NCBI GenBank assembly: GCA_002245135.1
Contig: NGBS01001166.1
Span: 124,001-188,000, forward strand
Reading direction: 5' to 3'
From: Proteromonas lacertae
Lineage: Eukaryota
DNA: 64,000 nucleotides
The position numbers and the translations under genes were made by a program. Numbering within the stretch: position 1 is the first letter of the stretch; every line of letters begins with the position of its first letter. Below the pieces are notes generated by a model. The model was not told where the DNA came from and did not search any database. It was given only the letters and a program-made list of their open reading frames with translations. Below are positions 9,897-63,152 of this stretch, in pieces.

Positions 9897-12800
9897 ATGG
9901 ATGGTATGTTATAGTCTGACTATTTATCTATAGAATTTGATATAAACTATACTACTGCTGATGATAATCACACTGATAACCCATCACAACCGGGAGACAA
10001 CAATGATGATTTAATCGCCATGGCTGAAGGTCTTCTAGGAGACATTTCTTCCAATAACGGTGATGAACAAAAAGAGAATAATGTAGATGATAATATAGAG
10101 AAAACTGAAAATGCAACTGAAGAACAGAATAAAGAAAGTAATGAAGATGTTAAGCCTGCTCAAAATAATGATAATGATTTAAAAATAGATGATATTGATG
10201 ATATAGAAGATGAATCACCAAAATCTATTCCAAAACAATTACCTCCAATAAATTTACCTTCACATAATTTTTTAGAACCAATAGAACCAAAGGAAAATAA
10301 AGAAGAAGTAAAAGAAGAAGATGTAAAAGAGGAAAGTGTAAATGAGGATAATCAAGAGAATAATCAGCCTAATAATGTTAATACCGATGATTTAAAAGAA
10401 GAAGATATTGATGATTTAGAATCAATAGATAACTCACCACCAAAACTAACAGAGGAGAATAAAGAAGATGAGAATAAAGAAGAAGAGAATAATAAACACG
10501 AAGAAACTGATAATTTGAGTGATTATGATGATTTAGACGATTTATTATCAGATAAGAAAGAGAATATAGTAAAAGAAAATGATGAAAAGGAGCAAGAAGA
10601 AGTTAAAGAAAAGGAAGATGAAAAGTAGTTAAGAGAATGAAGAAGAGAATGAAGAAGATAAAGAAGAAGTTAAAAAAGAAGTTACAACAGAAGAAGATAA
10701 AAATGAAGAAGATAAAAATAAAGAAGATAATGAAGAAGAGAATAAAGAAGAAGTGAAAGTAGTGGAAGAAGAGGTTAACAATGATAATAATGAAGAAGAC
10801 ACAACAAAAACCAATGATTTGAATGATTTATATGATTTTGATGATGTAAATACATTACTATCAGATAATCCAACAAATAAGCCAATAACAACTACAACAG
10901 AAGAAGAAAAAGAGAAAGAAGATGATAATATAGACAATATTGAAGAAAAGGGTGAAGAAAAACTTCATGAAAATGAGAATAATGACGAGGATAAATTAGA
11001 TATATCAAACAATGGTGATAATAAGGAGGAAAAAGAAGAAGATATTGATGATTTAGAATCAATAGATAACTCACCACCAAAACCAACAGAAGAAGATAAA
11101 GAAGATGAAAATAAAGAAGAGAATAATAAACACGAAGAAACTGATAATTTGAGTGATTATGATGATTTAGACGATTTATTATCAGATAAGAAAGAGAATA
11201 TAGTAAAAGAAAATGATGAAAAGGAGCAAGAAGAAGAAGAAGAAAAGGAGCAAGAAGTAGTTAAAGAAGATAAAAATGAAGAAGATAAAAATAAAGAAGA
11301 TAATGAAGAAGAGAATAAAGAAGAAGAGGGAGAAGATAATGAAATTGAGAATAATGAAAATAATGAAAAAGAAAAACCAGATGATGAAGATGATGATGAT
11401 AAAAGTGATGATAATTTAAATGATGATGTTTTAGATGATCTATTATCTGATAAAAAGAAGAATATGGAAGATAATGATGAAGAAGATGGTAATGAAGAAA
11501 AAGAAATTAAAGATGAAAATAATGAGAAAGAAAAAGATGAAAATGAAGATGATAAATTAGATTTATTAAATAGTAATGATGAAAAAGAAGAAAAAGATAA
11601 CAATGAAGTAATAGATGAAGATAATAAAGAAAATGAAAATGAAAAAGAGGATAATGATGAAGATGAAGCAATGGATGATGATTTTGATGATGATTTTGGA
11701 GATACAATTGAAAAAGAGGAAGAACCAAAAGAAGAAAAGAAAGAAGAAGAAGAAAAGGAAGAAGAAATGAATAAAGAGAATGAAGAAGAAGAAAAACATT
11801 CAGAGGAAGAAAATAGTGAAAATGAAAAGGAAGAAAGTGATAAAGAAGAAAAAGAAGAAGATAAACATGAAGATATTAATGTCAATAAACAAAGTTTCCA
11901 AACCACAGAAGATGAACCACATTCAGTAACTGAAGGAGATGAATCAAAGCAAAGTCTTTTAATAACTAACAAAACAGATGATCAACAAGACAATAACGAA
12001 TTATCAATAGTAAATGAACAAACTGATGAAGGAAGTAGTAAAGATATAAATGAGAATGAAGTGAATAATGTTGATAGACCATTATCATCACATGATGCTA
12101 TTGGACAATATGGATATATAATGGAGAATGAAGAAATAGAGATGTCTGCTGTTGAGAATAATGATGATAATAATAATGAAGAAGAAATGTCTAATTATGA
12201 CTTTTTACAAGAAAAACATCAACCAAATAAAGAAGATGAAGAAGATAAAGTAGATAATAATAATAAAGAAGAAGAAATAAAAGATAAGGAAGAAGAAGAA
12301 GAAGAAGAAAGGGAAGAAAATAATGATGATAATGAAGAAATGGAAAATAGTGAAGAAAATGAAAAAGTTGAAACTGAAAATGAAAAGAAAGAAGATAATG
12401 AGGAAGAAAAGGTTGATAATGATAATGAAAAAGAGGAGAAAAAGTCAAATGATAATATGGATGATGATTTCGATGATGATTTTGGAGAAGCAAGTGAAAA
12501 AGAAGAAGTTAATGAAGAAGAAAAAACCAAAAGATGAAAATGAGACAAAAGATGAGGATGAAATCAAAGATGAAATAGTTGAAGAGGATGAACAACAACA
12601 GCAAGAAAAAGAAGATGATGAAATAGAAAATGAAGATAATGATGAAGATGACATGAATGATCTATTAGCTGAAGCTCCATATCAATCACCAGCAATAAAG
12701 AAAGAAGAACAACAGCCAAAAGATGAAGAAATTAAAGAAGAAATAGATGAAGATAATCAACACGAAAAGTCTCAAGAAAATGAAGAACCAAAAGTAGAAG

Positions 12801-14198
12801 AAGAAAATCCAAAAGAAGAAGAGATAAAGGATGAAATAGTTGAAGAAGATAATCTGAAGGAAGAACCAAAAGAAGAAACTGTTAAAAAGACTGAAGATGT
12901 AAAAGTTAATGATGAAGAAGATATGAATAATCTATTAGCTGAACCTCCATATCAGTCACTAGCAATAAAGAAAGAAGAACAACAACCAAAAGAGGAAGAA
13001 GCAAAAGTTGAAGAAGAAATTAAAGAAGAATTACCAAAAAATGTCGAAGAAAAGACTGAAGTGAAAGAAGAAACAACACCAGATAAAAGTCCAAATGATT
13101 CAACAAAACATCATCATCACCACCATCATGATAAAGATAAAACCAAAGAAGTAAAACCAATACACAAACATAGTAGTAATAGTTCAAGATCAGAAACAGT
13201 AGAACCAACAAACTCAAAGAAAGATAAAATGAAGAAAAAACGATCAACAACCACTACTACTACAACTACTCAAGATAAGAAAAGTAAACATGATATTACC
13301 ACATCTTCATCTAAGCCAGTACCTTCATCATTACCAAATATAAACACAAAAACAGAAGTGAAAAGGAAATCAAGAGTTCCAAACTTTGATTCACCTACTA
13401 AATCTTCTATAAAATCAAAGCCACCTCGATCAGATAGCAAAAAGAGAAATCCTTCAATTAAAAAGAATAGTACTACAAATGATTTATATTATGAAAAACC
13501 AGCTTCACCTAGAAGTGGTGCAAAAAGTGCAGAAGCACCAGTTCTTATGGATCAGGCAGTTGATTTAGAGAATGATGATTTAGAAACCCCATTAGATGAA
13601 TATGAAGAAATGCTTCATGTATCTATTATTATATTATATTTATTATGTATAGAAACAAGTTGCTGAATTAATCAAAGAAAGAAAAGAAGCAGTGGATGAT
13701 GCAAAAGAAATGAAACAATTAATAGACACATTTTTAACATCAGCAGATAAAATCAAAAATATTCTTAGAAAATTTGAGAAAAAGTTTGGATATAGTAATA
13801 ATACATCCCTATTGTTACGTACAATGAATTCACATATGCCTGACATACAGAAAGCAATGAATTTATATTTAGATCCAAAGAAAAGATCACCTCAACCACA
13901 TTATGATGCAATAATTGATAAGAAATTATCATTACCATTATTAGTTAAAACACCACATAAATTACCACCAGAGCCGTTACCTCCTGCTGCAATGAGATCA
14001 ATGATGGTAAGACAACAGAAATATGTTGTTCAATCTAGACCTGAGTTTGATACAAGACAAACACAATTACCTCCAACTTTTGATGATATTGCTAGAAGGA
14101 ATAGAAGAGATTATATTTATGAAAAACCTCGTGTATAAATACTGATTCTTATTATGTTTTATATATAGAAACATCGTCTACATCCTTATGCTCAATAA
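9897..14198 (+). CDS. Very long acidic (D/E/N/K-rich) low-complexity protein with a basic, Pro-containing C-terminal region
   Basis: Co-directional ORFs 10020-10628, 10753-12537, 12323-13666 and 13692-14138; frame changes near 10625 and 12530 fall in A-runs; short introns at both ends. Confidence 0.65.
10394..11240 (+). repeat. Intragenic direct repeat, ~210 bp x2 (about 10394-10602 and 11031-11238)
   Basis: KEEDIDDLESIDNSPPK...HEETDNLSDYDDLDDLLSDKKENIVKENDEKEQEE occurs twice with near-identical DNA. Confidence 0.9.
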
Positions 14199-14737
14199 AC
14201 CTATTAAATATTTAAGTCTATTTTGTTTTCATTTACTTATGATGTTAGTATGTACTGAAAAAATGTAGAACATCTGTTTTTATAGGGAATATTTAAATCA
14301 CTTTTCATTTATTTTATTGCATCTATCATTTTAATAATACAATTAATTTATTACATTCTAATATTAAGGATGCTTCTGTTTTATTTTACAAAAGGAGAGT
14401 ATGAAGCAAAATGTGAATGTAAATTGGTTAGAACTATAACAGAACTTTGGTGTTAGATTGTTCATATAATAAGGCAATTGTAATAGGGTGTATATTACTG
14501 CAAAGTTAAGAAGTCAGTATGGATGATTAATGCCACTTGGCTCCCAACAGTCAAAATGATACTCAGAATTATTGATATCATCAGTACAATCCATTTTTAA
14601 TATTCATCATTGTAAATGGTAATCCGATGAAGTCGTAATTCATTCAAAAATTATAAAAATGAATTTAAAATCATTTTGATTGGTTCGTTTCATCATCATT
14701 CACTTTTATTTCATTTAATCATTTTCATTTAAAAAGA

Positions 14738-15943
14738 ATGTCTGGTCTCCCAGAAGGTCACTTTTTGTTCACTAGTGAGAGTGTAAATGAAGGTCATCCA
14801 GGTATAATTTAAAACTAAGAGTTCAACTACTATATTTTAGATAAAATTTGTGATATTGTAAGTGATGCGATATTAGATGCTTGTTTAGCTCAAGATCCTA
14901 ACAGTAAAGTAGCTTGCGAGACCTGCACAAAGACGAAGATGATAATGGTGTTTGGTGAGATAACAACCAAAGCTACAGTGAACTATGAGAAAGTAGTTCG
15001 TGATGCGATAAAAGATATCGGTTATGACAGTGATGATAAGGGTTTAGACTATCAATCTGTGAATGTGATAGTAGCTATTGAAGAACAAAGTGTTGATATT
15101 GCTCAAGGAGTACATGTAGGTCGTGCTCCCGAAGAACAAGGTGCTGGTGATCAAGGTATAATGTTTGGTTATGCCACAAATGAAACAGAAGATTATATGC
15201 CAGCTACTGCTTATTATGCTAATAGATTAGGTTATAAACTAACCGAAGTTCGTAAGAATGGTACTCTTCCATGGGTTCGTCCAGATGGTAAAACTCAAGT
15301 AACAATGGAATATAAGAAAGAAGGCAACAAATTAATTCCTGTTCGTGTTCACACAATAGTAATCTCAACTCAACACAGTCCTGATGTTTCAAACGAAAAG
15401 ATTCATGAAGATTTAATGACTTATGTAATAAAGCCAATAATTCCAAGTGAATTATTAGATGATAAGACAATATATCATTTAAATCCAAGTGGTCGATTTA
15501 TAATAGGTGGTCCACATGGTGATGCTGGTTTAACAGGTCGTAAAATCATAGTTGATACTTATGGTGGTTGGGGCGCTCATGGAGGAGGTGCTTTCAGTGG
15601 TAAAGATCCAAGTAAAGTTGATCGAAGTGCTGCATATGCTGCTCGTTGGATTGCTAAGAGTTTAGTTCATGCTAATTTATGTGATCGTGTTTTAGTTCAA
15701 TTAAGTTATGCAATTGGTATAAATCATCCCTTATCAATTTATGTTGATACTTATGGAACTGGTAAGAAGAGTGATACTGAATTAATTGATATAATAAATA
15801 AGAATTTCGATTTACGTCCTGGTTGTATAATTCGTGATTTAGGATTAACAAGTGCTATATATCGTAAGACAGCTGCTTATGGTCATTTTGGTCGAAAAGA
15901 ACAAGCTTTCACTTGGGAAACTCCAAAAGATTTGAGTGTATAA
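14738..15943 (+). CDS. MAT: S-adenosylmethionine synthetase, copy 1 (intron 14802-14840)
   Basis: [23 protein letters not shown] after splicing the 39-nt intron; GAGDQG and GGGAFSGKD signatures. Confidence 0.98.
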
Positions 15944-16554
15944 GCTGTGAGTAATTTTAACATATTCTCAATATTTACATAAACATTGTATAGATAGACT
16001 AACCCTTTAATACTATAAAATAATATAAATTTGTTTTGTTTTTAAATAAAAATCAAAAGTTGAAATATAGTGAAGATGATGATGATATTATTAACAATGA
16101 TATATAGTTATATTTATTCAATCTGATGAAAAAGAAATAAATGAAAATATATTCGTTTCATTTATTTTAGAAATGTTAAAATAATGCTGTAGATGATGAT
16201 ATAACATCATCAATATTGAGATATGGTTGTAGAGAAATATGATGAAAAGAGGATGGTAAAAGTGTTAGATGTATGTGAAATGATATATATAGTAACGGTA
16301 GGCTCTGTGACTTAAACGGCTCTTCTTTCAAAATTTTATATAGGAAAAGTATACTTTTGTCCCAAAATGAAAATCTATTTTGCAACTTAAAGTTTCAAAA
16401 TAGAATTCAACTTCTATAAATGAATAAGTATACATTGAAGTAATTCTTGAACTCAAAAAGATAAACACTATAAAAACAAATTTATAATCAATATAATTCT
16501 ATAAATGGAATATATAATAATTTTAATTAATGATTGTTATTCTTTAAATCACTC

Positions 16555-17526
16555 TCATGTTAACCAAACATTTATAATATTTTCATCATACTCACCTCCT
16601 GGTTTGTTAGGAATTAAACAAATGTTATCTGGAGCAACAGTTACTTTAATCTGTTTCTGATCCAATTCATCTTGTACATTAAAGCCTTTGGTTAAAACAA
16701 GTGGTTTAACATCAGATCCTTCTAATAATAATATTGGCCTTTTATCATCACAACTATAATTTACACATACTTTTCCATTTTCTTTATAAGGAAATATAAC
16801 TACTCTAATCTTTGTTGTATCATGTTCAAAGAGAAATGCTTTATTAATAAACTCTTCCACAGCTTCAGTAATTATCTTTTTCCATTCTGGAATACCACCA
16901 TCACTATCTTTAACTGAAATCTTTCTTGGTCTTAATTTGTCGTCCTTATATGTCACACTACTAATTACAGTGTTGTCAATCTTTAAAGTGAAGTGATTAC
17001 CTTTGTCAAATGTTGAAGCATCATAAATATTACCAATTATATCTATCTTAAAATTTTTGTCTAACTGTAGCTTTCTGTATGTTCTATCCTTTGAATGATC
17101 GAATTTCCACTGTTTGATTTCACCAGGATTAGTATCATCTGTTGTCATCTTCTTTGAAGCTCTTTTAGCACCGCCATCATTTCTTTTCTGCTTCTTGATA
17201 GGTTGAATTACCTCATTGTCTTCACCTTGAGGTTCTGTTACTGGTCCATCTTCAGCATTGATATCTTCTCCTTGTAATTCTGTAGTTTCATTTGGAACAT
17301 CCATTTTACCTTTCACAATTCTTGCTTCAAATCCTTCTAATGGATGTATTTTCATTTGCTATTGTTGTTAAATGAGAATATAATGTAATACTTTAAATTT
17401 ATATACAACATCTTCATACTGCTGTTGCATTGTCTTTGTTTCTTCTTTCTTAGCAGCTGTTGCTATAGCTCTTTTCTTTGGTGGTAAAGCTGGAGGATTT
17501 GGATTTTCACTTAATGAAAGTTGCAT
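16555..17526 (-). CDS. Unknown ~307 aa protein, copy 1 (two exons)
   Basis: Exon 1 MQLSLSENPNPPALPPKKR..., a 48-nt GT-AG intron, then the 266 aa ORF; host-like AT-rich codons. Confidence 0.75.
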
Positions 17527-17952
17527 GTTAAAATATCTTGAAAACTACAAGAAAACTTGGAATGAAATTGGGACAATAATTAAAATTATTGTATGTCGTT
17601 TCACGAATCGTCACTAAATTTTGTTTTTTTATTTTAGTTTGGATTTTCTCTCTATATTTAGAGTTATATTTAATTCTATAGATTTTGTGGTTCTAGCAGT
17701 CTATGTCTCTAGAAGCAAAGAGACAAGATTATGAAATAAAGAGGAAGCACATATTAAGAAGTAATCAAGAAGAAGGCAACTATGTAGTATATATACGGAT
17801 ATCTACGAGATTGCTCCTACGGAGATTGCTGTTACAGAGGGATTCTTCCTAAAGGTACCATCTCCCAAAGGTGGAGTATTATTGATCAAAGGATCTTTTC
17901 GATCTAGGAGTAATTTTGTAAAGGCAATTTTCATTCCTTAAGTGTTTTCTAA

Positions 17953-18608
17953 ATGGCCTTTACAAGTGTTTATCACCAAGAGAGGTTGAAGTTGAAGTTT
18001 TTTAGCGACGATGATGACTTTGAAATAGCTTTTTAATGTAATTGAGGAAACGTGGGAACATGAAGCTAACAATTGTATACTTTTTACCAATTCTTAACTC
18101 CAGAATTTCCACTCTGTTCTCAACTACTCTGGAGTTCTTATAATTCACCATGCATCGTAATAATAATAATAATATTTTTGTAAGTGTTCTTTATGCATTT
18201 CAATGGCAAGTTCAACTCAGAGGATCGGTTCACCAGATCATTGACACCGACAAGAACTTCATCATCCAGCTCCTGAATGTTACCTTCCTACGATTCAACA
18301 ATGGAGAGCTCAAGTGCTGGAGGAACATCTCCGAGGAGCAGAAGAACCAGATGCTAATGATTGCCGAAAAGCAATGCAAGATCCAGGCAAAGTACAATGT
18401 TGCTTTACCAGCCTCTCCCGATAACGTTAAGCAAGTCTATGTTGTTGTAAGCAAAGTCACCCATAGATAAGAACTGCACTGATAAGGGATACTGTAAAAA
18501 TGAAATTGTCTTGTGGGTAAAGAACTATCAACTCACGATCAAGAGAAATCTTTACATCGATATCATCTATCCCAAGTATGAGGTGATCTCTCCGATCATC
18601 GTCCTTTA
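17953..18608 (+). pseudogene. Frameshifted viral-type ORFs in the left arm (mirror of about 24157-24812)
   Basis: MAFTSVYHQ... from 17953, then MASSTQR/HQIIDTDKNF...PIDKNC...YEVISP; C/G-ending codons like the island; broken by single-base indels. Confidence 0.5.
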
Positions 18609-19976
18609 GATGATGTTCACGATACCACTTTAATTGACAGTTGCTCCTCGGCCAGTGACCACGTAGAAGCGATGGAAGATGTTCTCGGTCTTGAGGGTGT
18701 CGGAGTACATTTCAAAGGTAAACTTAATATCTTGATCCATTCTCTTGCCTTGTCTATTTTGGAGATCGAATAAGCCAAAGTTACTAAAGTTGAGTACCTC
18801 GATGAACTTATCTTCCTCCTGAACGTAGTTGTACTGATCGTGCCAGCTACAGGCTAGCAAAGGCTTTATCATGTGGTAGTTATCATAGTCCTTGAGGTTA
18901 ACAAAGTCTGGGTTGTATTGGAAGTCATTGATAAGCCATCTGAACTTGGTACTTTGCTTATCTAGCTTCTGGATCTTGTCGTTCCCATCATAAGGACGAT
19001 AAGCAATGAACTTGATGTACTTACCGAGACTACTATTCAAGGTAAAGGTATATCGTAAGAAGTCCATGCCGGAGCTGCTAGTGACAGTGAAGCAATGGAA
19101 GTCATTGAAGTCAATTGTTTTGTTAAGGCAGTACTTGATCGTGTTGTCATTACAGGCTGGATCGTTGTTAATCTTCACGTAGAAGTAGAAGTTGTCTAGG
19201 CTTACTTTTACCTTGGGTTCTATCATCTTTGCTTTTACTGGATCGGTCATCTCCTTAGCTGTGCTATCCTTCATCTCATTGAACTTAGTACTCTTACTTT
19301 CCTTAGGGTTGTAGAAACCATCAGCCTTACCGGATCTCAAAGTGATGAATAGCTTCTCCGAGAAGAAGACATCTGTTGCTGAACTAAGTATTGTATTAAA
19401 GAGCTCTCCAAGGAAGATCTTTACAAGGTGTTGGTAATGCCCGTCCTTTAATTTTTCTACTTTAAACTCCTTGACTTCATAGTCCTCAGTGTCTTTGCTT
19501 TCCTCAGCATAGCAGCCATCAAAGTAAACCTTCTGATTATACTTATCAATATTCTTTCTTGCTACATGAACCATCATTTGCCGGAACAACTCATACTGAT
19601 GATCTGCATATAGTAACTGAACTCCATTGGAGTTGTAGACTTTGATCTCAGTCAAGTTGTATGAGTTGAATAACACGTAAGTATCGTAAAAGAACTTCCA
19701 ATCCCCTGCCTTATCAGTATTCTTACTATCAGGATCTATAGTCTTTCTATTGTTACCATAATAGTCAACGTAGAATTGGATGTAACTCTTGCTTAAGTTG
19801 CTGCAGTAATTACCAGGGAGTTCAAAGGTGATCTCAGGAGTCATGCATTGCTCTGGGCAGTCGACCTTAGGATAAGATTGAGTAGGAGTAAGCTTTATCG
19901 TCTGGTAGAGTGGATTCATGACTGGGATGATAGGAGCATGTTGTTGCTCCTTGGGGATGATCACTTGAGTTGACAT
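18606..19976 (-). CDS. Putative double-jelly-roll major capsid protein (PLV/Polinton/virophage type)
   Basis: 448 aa beta-rich ORF; N-terminal ITFELPG..NLSKSYIQF and central VKIFLGELFNTILS..TDVFF..KLFITL resemble PLV MCP motifs; lies next to a penton-like gene; TAA at 18630 is followed in frame by SGIVNII-stop. Confidence 0.75.
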
Positions 19977-20027
19977 TGCTTATAACTCCTTAGAATACAC
20001 AAAGGAAATGATTCAATGGAAAGGAAC

Positions 20028-20990
20028 TTAGAATAAGTCTACCTCGAAGTTGTAGTCATGCATCTTGAGGTCTAGCTGGAAGCCATCTTGTTGGGTAATG
20101 CTAACGATTACTTGACCTTCTGTGTAGTTACCTAATTGCTTTGCTCGGGAGATGAGATCGTTGTTGTTGAAGGCAATGTAAGGCTGGGTAAAATCCACGA
20201 TAGGGAAAGTTTCTAGGATCTTGGAGTCTTGATCTTGGTTCACCATTTCCATCCTGATGATTACAGAGTCTATCCAGATGATCGTAGGCTCTCCAGGTAA
20301 TGTTACTTCTGGATACTTGTAAGTCAATAGACCGGATGAAGTGTGTTGATGATCAGCTAGGATATATTGAGTATCTCCCATCCCGAGGAATCGATAAGCA
20401 ATCCCTGGAGACTTTAACTTGATAGAGCAGATGAAGGCTCCTGTGTATTCATTACCAGCGCTGTTGTTTACTTAAAGGCCGATGACATTGCTAGCTCCTG
20501 TAAAGGTTAAGTTGGTGGTGTAAATATGATGAGGATCAGAGGACGTGCAATTCTTCTTACTAAAGGCTGTTGATGGATCGAACATAAGGAGGTTGCTTCC
20601 TGTACTACTTGCTTCTAACTCTGGATGGACGGTCTTTATCACTTTGATAACTTCTCCTTGAGTGAGTTTCTCAAAGGGACTGTAGAACATCGCAAGGAGC
20701 TCATCACCACTATAGTCTCCTTTAGGGATCGTCATGTTGTAGTTGAACTCTACGTGTTCATACTTATCTCCTACAGTACGGATAGCGATCTGGAAGACAT
20801 AGGTCATCTGGTCATTGACTCCTTCTTGGACAACATAGAAGGAGTTGGGGATGCTAGCATACTTCAAGGCAATGTACTTGTAGATGTCCTTCCTTACATC
20901 GGTGGGGATAGCAATGATCAATTCATACTTGTTCTTCTGGGCAATTCTTCTAGCTGAGCTAATGCTAATCGTTCTTGTTTGGTTGGACAT
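20028..20990 (-). pseudogene. Putative minor capsid protein (penton, single jelly roll) split by one in-frame TAA at 20472-20474
   Basis: TISISSARR, IALKYASIPNSFY, TIPKGDYSGDEL, ILETFP and ITQQDGFQLDLKMHDYNFEV match the PLV/virophage penton pattern; ORFs 20472-21038 and 20028-20381 are in the same frame with an open 30-codon linker. Confidence 0.8.
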
Positions 20991-21045
20991 GTCCGAGAAA
21001 AATGAACTTAAGGAAAAGATTGAATAACGATTTACCATAAGTCTC

Positions 21046-21828
21046 TTACTTACGTCTTCGATAAAGCTTCCATAAGGGGATTCTTCTTCCTACCTTGCCA
21101 TATCCGAAGAGTCTTTTGACTGCTTGAAAGCCATTGTCCAGGGATGTTCCGAAGTTACCAAGGTTCTGAACTAACCCAGCAGCATTTCCAATCACTTGTT
21201 GTGGGTTGCTCCATAAGGTTCCTTTATTGTAAGCATCTCTGAGGTTAAGTAAGTTCCTTCCGAAGTCTGTAGTGGTTCCGACTGCTCCAATCGTGTTGTT
21301 GGTGATGTCCATGAAGCTCTGGTACATTGTCGGTCCAAAGGAAGTCTTGATCATCTCATCGGAGAAGTTCAAGAGGCCTTTGATCTCTGGGTTGTTGATA
21401 TAATTGAAGACTGCTCTGATAACATCACTGTTCGTAGCTACGGTGTTGGTAGCGTTCCTTAAGTTCTCGATGAAGCTGATTATACTTGTCCTGATCAATG
21501 GTTTCTGATCAGGAGCTGCGTACTTGTACTTCTCGATCATTGATTGTAAGTTGCTAAGAACGTTGTTGATCTGGGCAGTGTTCTGTTGATAGACTAGATG
21601 GGGATTGCTCATCCATTGATTTTGTTTAGCCTGCTGCTGTAAGCTAGGATGACTTACCGATGGATTACGATAGTAAGTTGATTGATTGGGATAGAGTGCT
21701 GAGAGGTTCCTTGAAGCTGGAGTGTTTATGTTACCAACAAAGTCTCGGTAGTTGTAGTAGTTGGCTTTACCGTACTGGTTAATCATGTTGGCCTTGTAAA
21801 GTTCTCTTGTTGGGGAGTTGTTTACCAT
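21046..21828 (-). CDS. N/Q-rich protein with Gly/Arg-rich C-terminus; candidate virion core protein (start may be 21786)
   Basis: Ends FGYGKVGRRIPLWKLYRRRK; directly upstream of the penton-like and MCP-like genes. Confidence 0.5.
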   Translation of the reverse strand: MVNNSPTRELYKANMINQYGKANYYNYRDFVGNINTPASRNLSALYPNQSTYYRNPSVSHPSLQQQAKQNQWMSNPHLVYQQNTAQINNVLSNLQSMIEKYKYAAPDQKPLIRTSIISFIENLRNATNTVATNSDVIRAVFNYINNPEIKGLLNFSDEMIKTSFGPTMYQSFMDITNNTIGAVGTTTDFGRNLLNLRDAYNKGTLWSNPQQVIGNAAGLVQNLGNFGTSLDNGFQAVKRLFGYGKVGRRIPLWKLYRRRK

Positions 21829-21855
21829 AGTACTTGATTGTATATTGCTGGGGGT

Positions 21856-22068
21856 TCAGTTCATCGATACTAGCTGCTGATTGTTACCTTCCATTACCTT
21901 GGCGTTGTTCTCCATCATCTTCACGGTCATTGCTGAGAGCTTCTTAACATCGGTGATGCCTTCAACCTTCTTATTGAACTCCTCCAACAATTGCTTCTTG
22001 ATGATCACCAGAGGATCATCACTTGTCTTTACCTTCTTGGGACTCTTGCTACTTGCCTTGCTTCTCAT
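21856..22068 (-). CDS. Small basic ORF of the viral island; probably frameshifted at its 3' end
   Basis: 70 aa ORF; an alternative frame continues AASIDELNPQQY...QHD-stop and overlaps ATG 21786. Confidence 0.45.
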   Translation of the reverse strand: MRSKASSKSPKKVKTSDDPLVIIKKQLLEEFNKKVEGITDVKKLSAMTVKMMENNAKVMEGNNQQLVSMN

Positions 22069-22094
22069 CGTCTTTACTAGAGAGAAATGGGCTA

Positions 22095-22289
22095 CTAGAG
22101 ATCGGAGGAGTCTACTTCATTGCCATGGACATTGATATCGACATCCTTGTAATGATCAGTGATTGCCTGGTAGTACTTCTTGTAAAGGTCAGAGTAGTGA
22201 CTGCTAGGAGTTGCTTTACATTGCTTCAATCTCTTGATGATCAGCTCCTTGAGCTTTGCCTTTTGCTTCTTGTTGAGTTTCTTAGTCAT
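22095..22289 (-). CDS. Small Lys-rich ORF of the viral island
   Basis: 64 aa ORF, same strand and codon style as its neighbours; preceded by a TTTTCCCTTAAGT motif. Confidence 0.5.
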   Translation of the reverse strand: MTKKLNKKQKAKLKELIIKRLKQCKATPSSHYSDLYKKYYQAITDHYKDVDINVHGNEVDSSDL

Positions 22290-22335
22290 AACAAGACTAT
22301 ACTTAAGGGAAAAGAATTACTGGGGATAGACATGC

Positions 22336-23450
22336 TTATGTTATCGCTTTAAGAGCTTTCTTCTTCTTCTTCATAGCACTGTTAAGTTCCTTGTCGAATT
22401 CTTCAACATCGTCTAAGTAGTTGTCTAAGCAGTAGGATGGATTGAGTCGGCTAGTTCATTGAAGACTGTATAGGAGTATGTAGTCTTGAGTGAGTCCATT
22501 ACCTTATTGATATCCTCAGAGGTAGGTTTCTTTGATTCATCATCATCATCAGCAGCAGCAGTAGTAGTAAGTAGTTGACTTAGTAAGGCCATTGTATTCT
22601 CATCATCATCATCGGAGCTTCCTCTGGCTCCTTGTTTCATCATCATCATCATCATTGTTAAAGGGTCAAGATCCTCGGAGGAGTCATTTACTTCATGGTC
22701 AGCTTCAATGCTCTTCATGATTGTAGTAACTACAAGGAAGCAAGGAGTTGATATCGCATCTATGATGGAGTCAGTTTTGTAAGCAACTCTCTTGCTCTTA
22801 CTCTTGGCCTTCTTGGGGATCAACGATCTTGCCATCCTTTGACTCATCAACTCATTGTTCTCCAAGGCAGTAAGATAGTCGCTAGCTACATTGTAAGCTC
22901 CTTGGAGTTCTGCATCCTTACCCATCATCGGATGCTTTGTGGTGTAATCTCTGAGCATTCCTCGGAGTTCATCTATCCTTTGATTCCTTCTTCACCAGAT
23001 AGCTCCTTGACGTTCTCTTGCTAGTGATTGTAAGTAAGCTTCATGAATGTCATTTAATCATCCTTGTCTACTCCATTGCCTTTGAAAAGTGCTCTTCGTC
23101 TATTAGCTAAGTTGAATCTCTTAAACTTGTTCATGATTGCTGCTGGAAAAAGAGATATTGCGAGTAACTTCTTATAAGTACATCCTCCCTGAGTTGTTTA
23201 CTCATAGTTTTTTACTTCCTGGATCTCGTTGTTATCATCCTCATCCTTGTCTTCATCTTTAGACTCCTTCTCTACCTCGATAACTTCCTCAAGGTGTTTT
23301 CTTAAGCTAGTAATCTCTTCATCAGTCATGTCTTCAATAAGCTCAGCATCTAGGTGTTCATCGTGTAAGTGATGACTACTTCGGTCTCTTTCTAACTCTG
23401 GTTGTTAAACTTCTTCAGTCTTGACATCTCTGGACAACTCACTTGATTGT
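22336..23450 (-). pseudogene. Degenerate acidic/coiled-coil viral ORF(s)
   Basis: One frame runs 23450 to ~22980 with TAR codons at 23405, 23198, 23054 and 23021, shifts in an A-run into the 177 aa ORF, then shifts again to ...DKELNSAMKKKKKALKAIT-stop. Confidence 0.55.
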
Positions 23451-24055
23451 TGTTGTTCCCCGTATGGCGGAACTCTATATTCCAGAATGATTCAATCAAA
23501 ACTAATATGATATTCATGATGTTCGGAGTTAGTTATTAACAAATATATAGTTAGTTTGTCATATGACCTACATCTGTGATATACTTTTTTATGAACTTCA
23601 TTATTATCAATATTAAACTAATTTTTGTATATTTTCTATTTTAATGTATCAGTAACTAATACAGTCTAAAATACATTATCTGATATGAATAGAATTCACT
23701 ATTTTTAATGTTAAGGCTGTCAAAAAAGAAAAAAGAAAAAATAAGTTCAAGCCTCACTCAAGCCTGCTCTTTAATTTCCTTTTTTATTACCTTAACATTA
23801 AAAATAGTGAATTCTATTCATATCAGATAATGTATTTTAGACTGTATTAGTCACTGATACATTAAAATAGAAAATATACAAAAATTAGTTTAATATTGAT
23901 AATAATGAAGTTCATAAAAAAGTGTATCACAGATGTAGGTCATATGACAAACTAACTATATATTTGTTAATAACTAACTCCGAACATCATGAATATCATA
24001 TTAGTTTTGATTGAATCATTCTGCAATATAGGGTTCCGCCATACGGGGAACAACA
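23451..24055. mobile_element. Non-autonomous fold-back element (MITE): 266-bp TIRs, 73-bp spacer, 5-bp TSD
   Basis: Arms 23451-23716 and 23790-24055 are reverse complements with about 4 mismatches; ends TGTTGTT...AACAACA; ATTGT at both 23446-23450 and 24056-24060; AT-rich within a GC-richer island. Confidence 0.93.
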
Positions 24056-25238
24056 ATTGTAACTCTGGCAATGCTGTTGATCATCAACATCCTTCACTTC
24101 TCTGAGATAGCTATCCTTGTAAGTTCATTAACAGTATGGAGAATAAATCCATCAATGCCTTAAGAATGATAGGAGAGATCACCTCATACTTGGGATAGAT
24201 GATATCGATGTAAAGATTTCTCTTGATCGTGAGTTGATAGTTCTTTACCCACAAGACAATTTCATTTTTACAGTATCCCTTATCAGTGCAGTTCTTATCT
24301 ATGGGTGACTTTGCTTACAACAACATAGACTTGCTTAACGTTATCGGGAGAGGCTGGTAAAGCAACATTGTACTTTGCCTGGATCTTGCATTGCTTTTCG
24401 GCAATCATTAGCATCTGGTTCTTCTGCTCCTCGGAGATGTTCCTCCAGCACTTGAGCTCTCCATTGTTGAATCGTAGGAAGGTAACATTCAGGAGCTGGA
24501 TGATGAAGTTCTTGTCGGTGTCAATGATCTGGTGAACCGATCCTCTGAGTTGAACTTGCCATTGAAATGCATAAAGAACACTTACAAAAATATTATTATT
24601 ATTATTACGATGCATGGTGAATTATAAGAACTCCAGAGTAGTTGAGAACAGAGTGGAAATTCTGGAGTTAAGAATTGGTAAAAAGTATACAATTGTTAGC
24701 TTCATGTTCCCACGTTTCCTCAATTACATTAAAAAGCTATTTCAAAGTCATCATCGTCGCTAAAAAACTTCAACTTCAACCTCTCTTGGTGATAAACACT
24801 TGTAAAGGCCATTTAGAAAACACTTAAGGAATGAAAATTGCCTTTACAAAATTACTCCTAGATCGAAAAGATCCTTTGATCAATAATACTCCACCTTTGG
24901 GAGATGGTACCTTTAGGAAGAATCCCTCTGTAACAGCAATCTCCGTAGGAGCAATCTCGTAGATATCCGTATATATACTACATAGTTGCCTTCTTCTTGA
25001 TTACTTCTTAATATGTGCTTCCTCTTTATTTCATAATCTTGTCTCTTTGCTTCTAGAGACATAGACTGCTAGAACCACAAAATCTATAGAATTAAATATA
25101 ACTCTAAATATAGAGAGAAAATCCAAACTAAAATAAAAAAACAAAATTTAGTGACGATTCGTGAAACGACATACAATAATTTTAATTATTGTCCCAATTT
25201 CATTCCAAGTTTTCTTGTAGTTTTCAAGATATTTTAAC

Positions 25239-26210
25239 ATGCAACTTTCATTAAGTGAAAATCCAAATCCTCCAGCTTTACCACCAAAGAAAAGAGCTAT
25301 AGCAACAGCTGCTAAGAAAGAAGAAACAAAGACAATGCAACAGCAGTATGAAGATGTTGTATATAAATTTAAAGTATTACATTATATTCTCATTTAACAA
25401 CAATAGCAAATGAAAATACATCCATTAGAAGGATTTGAAGCAAGAATTGTGAAAGGTAAAATGGATGTTCCAAATGAAACTACAGAATTACAAGGAGAAG
25501 ATATCAATGCTGAAGATGGACCAGTAACAGAACCTCAAGGTGAAGACAATGAGGTAATTCAACCTATCAAGAAGCAGAAAAGAAATGATGGCGGTGCTAA
25601 AAGAGCTTCAAAGAAGATGACAACAGATGATACTAATCCTGGTGAAATCAAACAGTGGAAATTCGATCATTCAAAGGATAGAACATACAGAAAGCTACAG
25701 TTAGACAAAAATTTTAAGATAGATATAATTGGTAATATTTATGATGCTTCAACATTTGACAAAGGTAATCACTTCACTTTAAAGATTGACAACACTGTAA
25801 TTAGTAGTGTGACATATAAGGACGACAAATTAAGACCAAGAAAGATTTCAGTTAAAGATAGTGATGGTGGTATTCCAGAATGGAAAAAGATAATTACTGA
25901 AGCTGTGGAAGAGTTTATTAATAAAGCATTTCTCTTTGAACATGATACAACAAAGATTAGAGTAGTTATATTTCCTTATAAAGAAAATGGAAAAGTATGT
26001 GTAAATTATAGTTGTGATGATAAAAGGCCAATATTATTATTAGAAGGATCTGATGTTAAACCACTTGTTTTAACCAAAGGCTTTAATGTACAAGATGAAT
26101 TGGATCAGAAACAGATTAAAGTAACTGTTGCTCCAGATAACATTTGTTTAATTCCTAACAAACCAGGAGGTGAGTATGATGAAAATATTATAAATGTTTG
26201 GTTAACATGA
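25239..26210 (+). CDS. Unknown ~307 aa protein, copy 2 (intron 25359-25406)
   Basis: 120-nt first exon from ATG 25239 splices in frame to CAA-ATG at 25407; identical translation to copy 1. Confidence 0.75.
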
Positions 26211-26821
26211 GAGTGATTTAAAGAATAACAATCATTAATTAAAATTATTATATATTCCATTTATAGAATTATATTGATTATAAATTTGTTTTTATAGTGT
26301 TTATCTTTTTGAGTTCAAGAATTACTTCAATGTATACTTATTCATTTATAGAAGTTGAATTCTATTTTGAAACTTTAAGTTGCAAAATAGATTTTCATTT
26401 TGGGACAAAAGTATACTTTTCCTATATAAAATTTTGAAAGAAGAGCCGTTTAAGTCACAGAGCCTACCGTTACTATATATATCATTTCACATACATCTAA
26501 CACTTTTACCATCCTCTTTTCATCATATTTCTCTACAACCATATCTCAATATTGATGATGTTATATCATCATCTACAGCATTATTTTAACATTTCTAAAA
26601 TAAATGAAACGAATATATTTTCATTTATTTCTTTTTCATCAGATTGAATAAATATAACTATATATCATTGTTAATAATATCATCATCATCTTCACTATAT
26701 TTCAACTTTTGATTTTTATTTAAAAACAAAACAAATTTATATTATTTTATAGTATTAAAGGGTTAGTCTATCTATACAATGTTTATGTAAATATTGAGAA
26801 TATGTTAAAATTACTCACAGC

Positions 26822-28027
26822 TTATACACTCAAATCTTTTGGAGTTTCCCAAGTGAAAGCTTGTTCTTTTCGACCAAAATGACCATAAGCAGCTGTCTTA
26901 CGATATATAGCACTTGTTAATCCTAAATCACGAATTATACAACCAGGACGTAAATCGAAATTCTTATTTATTATATCAATTAATTCAGTATCACTCTTCT
27001 TACCAGTTCCATAAGTATCAACATAAATTGATAAGGGATGATTTATACCAATTGCATAACTTAATTGAACTAAAACACGATCACATAAATTAGCATGAAC
27101 TAAACTCTTAGCAATCCAACGAGCAGCATATGCAGCACTTCGATCAACTTTACTTGGATCTTTACCACTGAAAGCACCTCCTCCATGAGCGCCCCAACCA
27201 CCATAAGTATCAACTATGATTTTACGACCTGTTAAACCAGCATCACCATGTGGACCACCTATTATAAATCGACCACTTGGATTTAAATGATATATTGTCT
27301 TATCATCTAATAATTCACTTGGAATTATTGGCTTTATTACATAAGTCATTAAATCTTCATGAATCTTTTCGTTTGAAACATCAGGACTGTGTTGAGTTGA
27401 GATTACTATTGTGTGAACACGAACAGGAATTAATTTGTTGCCTTCTTTCTTATATTCCATTGTTACTTGAGTTTTACCATCTGGACGAACCCATGGAAGA
27501 GTACCATTCTTACGAACTTCGGTTAGTTTATAACCTAATCTATTAGCATAATAAGCAGTAGCTGGCATATAATCTTCTGTTTCATTTGTGGCATAACCAA
27601 ACATTATACCTTGATCACCAGCACCTTGTTCTTCGGGAGCACGACCTACATGTACTCCTTGAGCAATATCAACACTTTGTTCTTCAATAGCTACTATCAC
27701 ATTCACAGATTGATAGTCTAAACCCTTGTCATCACTGTCATAACCGATATCTTTTATCGCATCACGAACTACTTTCTCATAATTCACTGTAGCTTTGGTT
27801 GTTATCTCACCAAACACCATTATCATCTTCGTCTTTGTGCAGGTCTCGCAAGCTACTTTACTGTTAGGATCTTGAGCTAAACAAGCATCTAATATCGCAT
27901 CACTTACAATATCACAAATTTTATCTAAAATATAGTAGTTGAACTCTTAGTTTTAAATTATACCTGGATGACCTTCATTTACACTCTCACTAGTGAACAA
28001 AAAGTGACCTTCTGGGAGACCAGACAT
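26822..28027 (-). CDS. MAT: S-adenosylmethionine synthetase, copy 2
   Basis: Mirror of 14738-15943; identical protein; two synonymous differences noticed. Confidence 0.98.
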
Positions 28028-28568
28028 TCTTTTTAAATGAAAATGATTAAATGAAATAAAAGTGAATGATGATGAAACGAACCAATCAAAATGATTTTAA
28101 ATTCATTTTTATAATTTTTGAATGAATTACGACTTCATCGGATTACCATTTACAATGATGAATATTAAAAATGGATTGTACTGATGATATCAATAATTCT
28201 GAGTATCATTTTGACTGTTGTGAGCCTCATGTTTTTGAAAAACAAATGTCCTTGATATATGAATTGCATATTTGATAATGGATCATTGCTTATTAGTAAT
28301 TTTTACGATTACTTTATTAGTTAGAATGTTAATTAGAAGTGATGTGATGAGTCATTTTTGAGTGATGTTTAAAATATATGATGAAAATCATAATTCATGA
28401 TATTTGAGAGTAATACAAAATGAGATTACTAGTTATTGAAGAAAATAAAAGAGTGATTTTAGATAATTTTTATGATTTATTGAGTTTATTTCTAATAATA
28501 CTGTATTTCACTATATTCAACACAAAATGTATTAAAATTTACAATCTAAACCTATTGATAATTATTAA

Positions 28569-50777: not shown

Positions 50778-53680
<2,903 letters not shown>

Positions 53681-62240: not shown

Positions 62241-63152
62241 TTATTTAGTTTTTTTCTTTTGTTTTATTTCTTCATATGTTTTACCTTCTGATTTACTTTC
62301 TCTCTTATATTCATCAGAAGTTTGTATAGATTTTAATTGTTTCTTGGTCTTCGTTGGTTTTAAATCTTCTTTCGTCATTCCTATTGCTGCTAACGCCTCT
62401 TCATCAACTTCCATCAACCTTTCATCATTTATTTCTTTACTTTCTTCTTTTGGTTTTGATGGTTTTAAATCTTCTTTCGTCATTCCTATTGCTGCTAACG
62501 CCTCTTCATCAACTTCATCAACTTCATCATTTATTTCTTTACTTTCTTCTTTTGGTTTTGATGGTTTTAAATCTTCTTTCGTCATTCCTATTGCTGCTAA
62601 CGCTTCTTCATCTGGTTCTTTAAATATGTATTCATCAAGAACAGATTTCTTCTTTTTATCTCCATTGACTGGCTTTGTAAAATTTTCCATTGCATTCTTT
62701 TCTATTGTATTACAAATAGGAGCTATTTCTATTTCTATTTTCTTTAAAGCTTCAATAAATTCCGAGTGGTATAATTTTGATTCTTCATTACTGACATTAT
62801 TAAATTTCAACTCAAGATTATTTAAATCATCTCTCAATTTACTATTTTGGGTTTGTATTTTTTTTATACTTTGTAATCTCCTTACATTTTGTTTTATCAG
62901 TGATTCATATAATGACTTTGATTGTAAATCACTTGATAAATATAAAATTTTCAGTTTAGCACAATTACTGTTTATTGAGTTTGTCCTATTATAAATATTA
63001 TTTCAATATACCTTAAATTAAACATTTTATCTATTGTATTAAGGCAGTCACGAATTCTTGTACTTTCTAAAAATAATTAAATTCATATACCCATTATAAG
63101 ATTCAGAAAGACGAAAAGAAATATTGTTGAAACGGCTAGTATCTTTAACTGT
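62241..63152 (-). CDS. Unknown coiled-coil protein with internal repeats (5' end uncertain)
   Basis: 198 aa ORF plus short upstream exons. Confidence 0.5.
62355..62612 (-). repeat. Coding tandem repeat, ~100 bp x3 (DEEALAAIGMTKEDLKP...)
   Basis: ggttttaaatcttctttcgtcattcctattgctgctaacgc occurs three times. Confidence 0.9.

Follow-up and report, generated by a model that had tools for sequence, protein, structure and literature searches.

A near-identical 4-kb inverted repeat carrying host genes flanks a decayed viral capsid cassette in the Proteromonas lacertae assembly

Results

Features of the locus

The window, i.e., the 64,000-nucleotide stretch of Proteromonas lacertae contig NGBS01001166.1 that was analysed as a whole, had a GC content of approximately 27% and short introns. 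It contained two arms in inverted orientation, each carrying host genes, and between them a segment of virus-like DNA (Table 1). Eight ORFs of the window had no exact-sequence entry in the protein collection.

Table 1. Coordinates of the features described in the text, counted from the first base of the window.
Feature	Position	Strand	Remarks
Left arm core	14545..18593	+	4049 bp; extended by blastn to 14539-18599
Right arm core, inverted copy	24172..28220	-	Extended by blastn to 24166-28226
Possible short box C/D snoRNA (weak lead)	14560..14614	-	Outer arm edge; mirror 28151-28205
S-adenosylmethionine (SAM) synthetase, host gene	14738..15943	+	Intron 14802-14840 from sequence; frame intact; mirror 26822-28027 (-)
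Second arm gene, host	16555..17526	-	Intron 17359-17406 from sequence; mirror 25239-26210 (+)
Frameshifted virus-like gene	18150..18609	+	Spans left inner junction; stop 18607-18609
Predicted double-jelly-roll major capsid protein gene	18606..19976	-	Premature stop 18630-18632, seven codons short of family-typical end
Virus-like frame, 336 codons	20028..21038	-	One in-frame stop, 20472-20474
Further virus-like genes	21046..23450	-	260-aa ORF, 177-aa ORF, fragments with stops and frameshifts
AT-rich palindromic insertion	23451..24055		605 bp, 26% GC; TGTTG...CAACA ends
Unique virus-like DNA	24056..24171	-	116 bp between palindrome and right inner junction (24171/24172)

Host genes in the arms

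The SAM synthetase contained the N, M, and C domains of Pfam and matched a PDB entry with an E-value of 6e-147. The second arm gene had two homologs at 49%, where the start of P0034 resembled the predicted exon 1, and had no match in Pfam or PHROG. The two genes showed low GC3 values (0.15 and 0.19, respectively) versus 0.44–0.53 in five central ORFs, and introns were visible in both, as the original prediction had stated; thus, they were regarded as host genes and not as viral cargo. The possibility that the SAM synthetase is a viral auxiliary gene was ruled out by its intron and its GC3. Both outer neighbour genes end approximately 345 bp from the arm.

Among the 120 matches listed for the SAM synthetase, those with names included proteins from Placidida, Suigetsumonas, and Blastocystis (72–75%). 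Five SAM synthetases of close relatives were 96–97% identical. In a quick tree of the window protein and 75 of these 120 matches, it adjoined, together with two others, six rows of the Blastocystis clade with a weak support of 86%, suggesting a stramenopile host close to Blastocystis. Among the matches listed, two of the three named Blastocystis genomes held near-identical SAM synthetase pairs: one was identical at 376 of 376 residues under consecutive accessions (KAK8820716/7), the other at 385 of 386 under accessions 90 apart (KAK8805460/5550), and both members of each pair were on contigs of equal size. A metagenome scan with the SAM synthetase listed 80 loci at ≤75% identity, none of them from Proteromonas lacertae.

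A decayed capsid cassette

A full HMMER search with the central 448-aa ORF yielded 18 relatives (E ≤ 0.001); these were assembly proteins, and the 10 of the 18 that were looked up occurred only in Logan. A word-based protein search recovered no capsid relative among 1603 candidates. The structural model (pLDDT 75.9) matched the double-jelly-roll capsids of mavirus, iridovirus, Sputnik, and PBCV-1 in PDB, and its top BFVD match was a 'MELD virus sp.' protein (E = 1e-13, TM 0.54, 10% identity). On the basis of the Atlas, the aligned relatives, the model, and the fold matches, the ORF is assigned as a predicted double-jelly-roll major capsid protein. The 336-codon frame next to it is a candidate minor capsid (penton) gene by its position and size; its model had an uninformative fold (pLDDT 33.6), and profile searches gave no significant family match. 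Profile scans, including PHROG, matched no family to the further genes upstream, and the frameshifted gene across the left inner junction had no Pfam or PHROG match and no usable Atlas match.

The premature stop in the capsid gene, the in-frame stop in the next gene, and the fragments upstream together indicate that the cassette has decayed. Packaging ATPase, PolB, integrase, and transposase were absent from the central and arm frames in profile scans, which very divergent fragments could escape; the missing viral replication genes may have been lost. No viral terminal inverted repeats with a target duplication were seen, the 4-kb arms and the internal palindrome being the sole inverted repeats observed, and no related viral locus was found in the viral contigs, prokaryote genomes, or phage records searched. 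Of the approximately 0.9 kb of virus-like DNA originally proposed for each arm, 18200–18593 was clear (GC3 of 0.63 and a frame scan), while 17700–18200 was ambiguous. Since viral codon usage was confined to the inner part of the arms, the virus–host boundary lies inside the arms and not at their ends.

MELD viruses with divergent virion proteins have been reported from Blastocystis data (PMC8502044). The cassette resembles these viruses and Polinton-like viruses as described there in its very divergent double-jelly-roll capsid and in the related host group (PMC8502044), whereas it has broken genes and no detected PolB, integrase, packaging ATPase, or viral terminal repeats.

A palindromic insertion within the viral DNA

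The inverted repeats of the 605-bp palindrome were approximately 270–280 nt long and 97% identical around an imperfect centre, and the predicted hairpin had an energy of −284.5 kcal/mol. A 5-bp direct repeat, ATTGT (23446–23450 and 24056–24060), exactly bounded its TG...CA ends; the chance of such a 5-mer match was 0.0019 per register, with 15 registers examined. The sides of the palindrome were not mirrored, and an acidic frame appeared continuous across the insertion point. It was present as a single copy in the window and had no match in viral contigs, and its 605 bp leave no coding room for a Gypsy-like integrase.

Ginger elements are described as ending in TGTNR, with 5-bp target duplications made by TDD-4/5 (PMC2836005). 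The palindrome shares with Ginger2/TDD the TGTNR termini, long terminal inverted repeats, and a 5-bp duplication as in TDD-4/5 (PMC2836005); it differs in having no transposase and one copy in the window, and its repeats exceed the 50–180 bp given for Ginger2 and are at the upper limit of Ginger1 (PMC2836005). It is likely a non-autonomous Ginger-type element inserted in a viral gene, judging from its termini and flanks. The AT-richness of the palindrome, its near-perfect symmetry around an imperfect centre, and its location in viral DNA would also suit a hairpin telomere of a linear viral genome, or a point at which two such genomes are joined head to head, with the arms arising from a replication dimer. 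This reading was rejected as extremely unlikely on the direct repeat exactly at the ends of the palindrome, its unmirrored sides, and the acidic frame that appears to cross the insertion point. The palindrome had been absent from the original description of the locus.

Extent and age of the mirror repeat

A self-blastn of the window aligned 14539–18599 with 28226–24166 in inverted orientation over 4061 bp, with 99.90% identity, 4 mismatches, and no gaps (E = 0). The mirror repeat is a real feature of the assembly, and it is probably a real feature of the chromosome as well. The original prediction had described 14539–18593 as mirroring 24172–28226 without net indel, which was borne out, the arms even reaching 6 bp further inwards. 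Its three differences (14544/28221, 14983/27782, and 15037/27728) were all present, whereas a fourth, 18594/24171, had been overlooked.

The two cores, separated by a spacer of 5578 bp, differed at 2 of 4049 positions. Both differences (14983/27782 and 15037/27728) lie in the SAM synthetase and are synonymous, as previously noted (AAC/AAT for Asn and GAT/GAC for Asp). They span 54 bp within the outer 493 bp of the arms, a placement with a probability of approximately 1.5–2.7% by position alone, whereas the inner 3556 bp (15038–18593) were 100% identical. The upstream DNA and the intron in the outer 440 bp were also identical between the arms. An identity of 99.95% that includes non-coding DNA indicates that the duplication is very young.

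The remaining mismatches, 14544/28221 (outer) and 18594/24171 (inner), immediately flank the cores, and five matching bases follow beyond each. The post hoc chance of this mismatch-plus-five pattern was 0.0024 and 0.0012 per end. Past the five bases, 218 and 202 of 300 shuffles scored as high as the flanks; ancient homology of the outer flanks was therefore rejected, as flank similarity did not rise above that of shuffled sequence. Arm ends of this form can be read as resembling template-switch or repair junctions.

Consistent with the reported lack of a target-site duplication at the outer ends, no direct repeat exceeding 2 bp was seen at 26 symmetric outer boundaries. In their geometry, long inverted arms flanking a viral module resemble a composite mobile element of 13.7 kb that has taken up host genes into its 4-kb terminal repeats, which had been proposed as one origin of the locus. 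However, in addition to the missing target duplication, no transposase, integrase, or polymerase match was obtained from the central and arm frames, the viral genes are broken, the virus–host boundary lies within the arms rather than at their ends, and self-comparison of the 64-kb window revealed no further copy of the 13.7-kb unit. The arm ends also resemble repair junctions, and this proposal was abandoned as very unlikely.

Assembly artefact versus genuine duplication

If the arm were single-copy in the cell, the mirror would derive either from chimeric molecules, e.g., those formed during whole-genome amplification, or from the merging of haplotypes or paralogous loci into one consensus. 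In one study of multiple displacement amplification (MDA), more than 85% of the chimeras were inversions with deletions, primed at 2–21 complementary bases (PMC1855051), and the locus shares this inverted, short-homology form (PMC1855051). An artefact also predicts near-identical arms. Single-base frameshifts in the tubulin genes of the window point in the same direction: in the beta-tubulin, residue 248 ends at 53081 and residue 249 begins at 53083, the alpha-tubulin breaks near residue 173, and two further tubulin frameshifts were noted by eye, which points to imperfections of the consensus in genes that often occur in several copies. On the other hand, the return to unique DNA demands two chimeric junctions, a mis-join makes no new junction sequence whereas all four junctions were sharp, and the arms differ at two clean sites with the SAM synthetase free of frameshifts. 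Long single frames elsewhere in the window were likewise intact (664 and 551 codons), and near-identical SAM synthetase pairs were also listed for relatives. By reasoning, neither one fold-back read nor simple heterozygosity for an inversion, with the arm in single copy, could give four distinct junctions. An artefactual mirror is somewhat unlikely, and should reads fail to support the duplication, the locus would serve as an assembly warning only.

Probable native and new junctions

Of the 12 capsid relatives aligned, 7 extend eight columns beyond the premature stop of the window, while the remaining 5 terminate sooner. A matching tail is encoded in the window and stops at 18606–18608, 13 bp from the left inner junction. 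The stop of the virus-like frame in the arm (18607–18609) overlaps this tail stop on the opposite strand, and a random continuation would stop at that codon approximately 4% of the time. The simplest reading of this tail-to-tail join close to the left inner junction is that the virus had it natively, and the new junction is therefore likely the right inner one (24171/24172). Viral contigs, prokaryote genomes, and phage records gave no relative whose gene order would corroborate this. The right inner junction lies 116 bp outside the palindrome, which is itself intact. Either outer flank may be the original one, because a flip of the centre interconverts both cases.

Discussion

Origin of the inverted duplication

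We tentatively propose, at somewhat less than even confidence, that the mirror repeat is a recent inverted duplication born of DNA repair in an already decaying provirus and not a mobile unit. A MELD- or Polinton-like virus would have integrated beside two host genes, decayed, and taken the Ginger-like palindromic insertion. A replication fork would then have stalled or broken just past the palindrome, whose role is suggested by its closeness to the junction. The free end would have annealed through a few imperfectly matched bases to the opposite strand, 5.6 kb back and past the end of the capsid gene, and copying would have proceeded 4 kb backwards through viral DNA, the second arm gene, and the SAM synthetase. 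A second short-homology switch would have joined the copy to distal host DNA, with the loss of the intervening DNA, perhaps including viral replication genes. The SAM synthetase would thereby be left in two intact copies, and recombination between the arms would invert the centre.

A recent fold-back duplication triggered at the provirus had been the other origin suggested for the locus. The junction anatomy fits this suggestion, whereas a simple fold-back does not suffice, as the 5.6-kb spacer and the return to unique DNA need two switches. In yeast, inverted duplications are reported to be primed at 5–11-bp, partly imperfect repeats and to be stabilised by a second rearrangement, with fold-back spacers of 6–35 bp (PMC10622511). 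The locus resembles these reported cases in its inverted neighbouring segment, the possible short imperfect homology at its junctions, and the second rearrangement required for rejoining (PMC10622511); it differs in that its spacer measures 5.6 kb rather than tens of bases and that it starts inside a provirus. A long-range template switch would fit the 5578-bp spacer better than a short-spacer fold-back.

The human dupINV class is grouped with fold-back and template-switch inverted duplications. The locus would represent a rearrangement of a familiar kind, met here in an unusual context, and defines no new class of element.

The clustering of the two synonymous differences fits a single fresh copying poorly; it would call for conversion afterwards, for another, third paralog, or for noise from polishing. 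It fits better with a two-step route, in which an older inverted SAM synthetase pair suffered a break near the palindrome that was repaired by invasion of one copy by the other, extended into the virus, and rejoined at 24171; of the junctions, the right inner one alone would then be recent. Both SNPs fall in the outer 493 bp, beyond an inner 3556 bp without differences; the near-identical pairs, of whichever relative orientation, in two of the three named Blastocystis genomes among the matches listed and the stop of both outer neighbours at about the same distance from the arm also favour this route. However, a single event is favoured by the identity of the upstream DNA and the intron across the outer 440 bp and by the mismatch-plus-five pattern common to the outer and inner ends, and the position of the host beside Blastocystis has only the 86% support of the quick tree. 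On balance, we regard the two-step route as unlikely.

Meaning of the locus

That the arms would invert the centre by recombination, as originally suggested, follows from their geometry. In plastid inverted repeats and herpesvirus isomers, two familiar cases, a unique segment lies between long inverted arms of identical sequence, which permits inversion isomers. The present locus is like these flip-flop systems in its arm geometry; flipping, and a function for it, would be conjectural here. It is doubtful, to a high degree, that the palindrome in the dead virus drove a rearrangement that doubled the SAM synthetase and created an invertible cassette, that the duplicate was kept by selection on SAM supply as a dosage gain recurring in the Blastocystis-related lineage, and that both orientations of the centre coexist in the population.

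If the duplication is real, the locus provides a very recent and clean example in which an endogenous virus, together with a small palindromic transposon, served as the place where host genes were duplicated in a protist that has received little study, with junctions of sufficient sharpness to reveal the repair route. Neither this locus nor an equivalent one was found described in a search of titles and abstract beginnings that covered a minority of subscription journals. The analysis additionally documents a divergent capsid lineage that was encountered here in assemblies only.

At the outer edge of the arms, a candidate snoRNA was noted as a minor observation. All 6 Rfam matches were below the gathering score; the one to SNORD52 reached 20.9 bits (E = 1.7) against a gathering score of 45, and C- and D-box-like motifs were recognised in the candidate by eye.

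Relatives of the capsid and duplicated host genes

For the unnamed capsid family (P0001-P0032), Logan assemblies were the only source among the matches that were looked up (10 of 18), and a search of viral contigs for relatives of this family returned none. Regarding S-adenosylmethionine synthetase, the host gene carried by each arm, one near-identical pair was found in each of two Blastocystis assemblies (proteins P0082/P0085 and P0098/P0099), where both members of each pair were located on contigs of the same length.

Edges of the arms and other features of the window

The short RNA candidate sits at the outer arm edge and is present twice, having been copied along with the arm. The outer neighbor genes on the two sides have predicted stop codons at 14198 and 28569; their distances from the arms are nearly equal (~345 bp) despite the unrelated flanks, which is possibly due to chance.

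Additional features in the window
Feature	Position (strand)	Remarks
Box C/D-like RNA candidate, short	14560-14614 (-); 28151-28205 (+)	Rfam match below threshold
Coding region, long, strongly acidic	10020-13666	Internal repeats
Tandem coding repeat	62344-62612	Unit ~105 bp; ~2.5 copies; 94-96% identity
Alpha- and beta-tubulin genes	50790-53660	Divergent

The acidic coding region is spread across three frames, which may reflect frameshifts or introns. The alpha- and beta-tubulin genes apparently contain two single-base frameshifts each, which are likely consensus errors derived from mixed paralogs or alleles.
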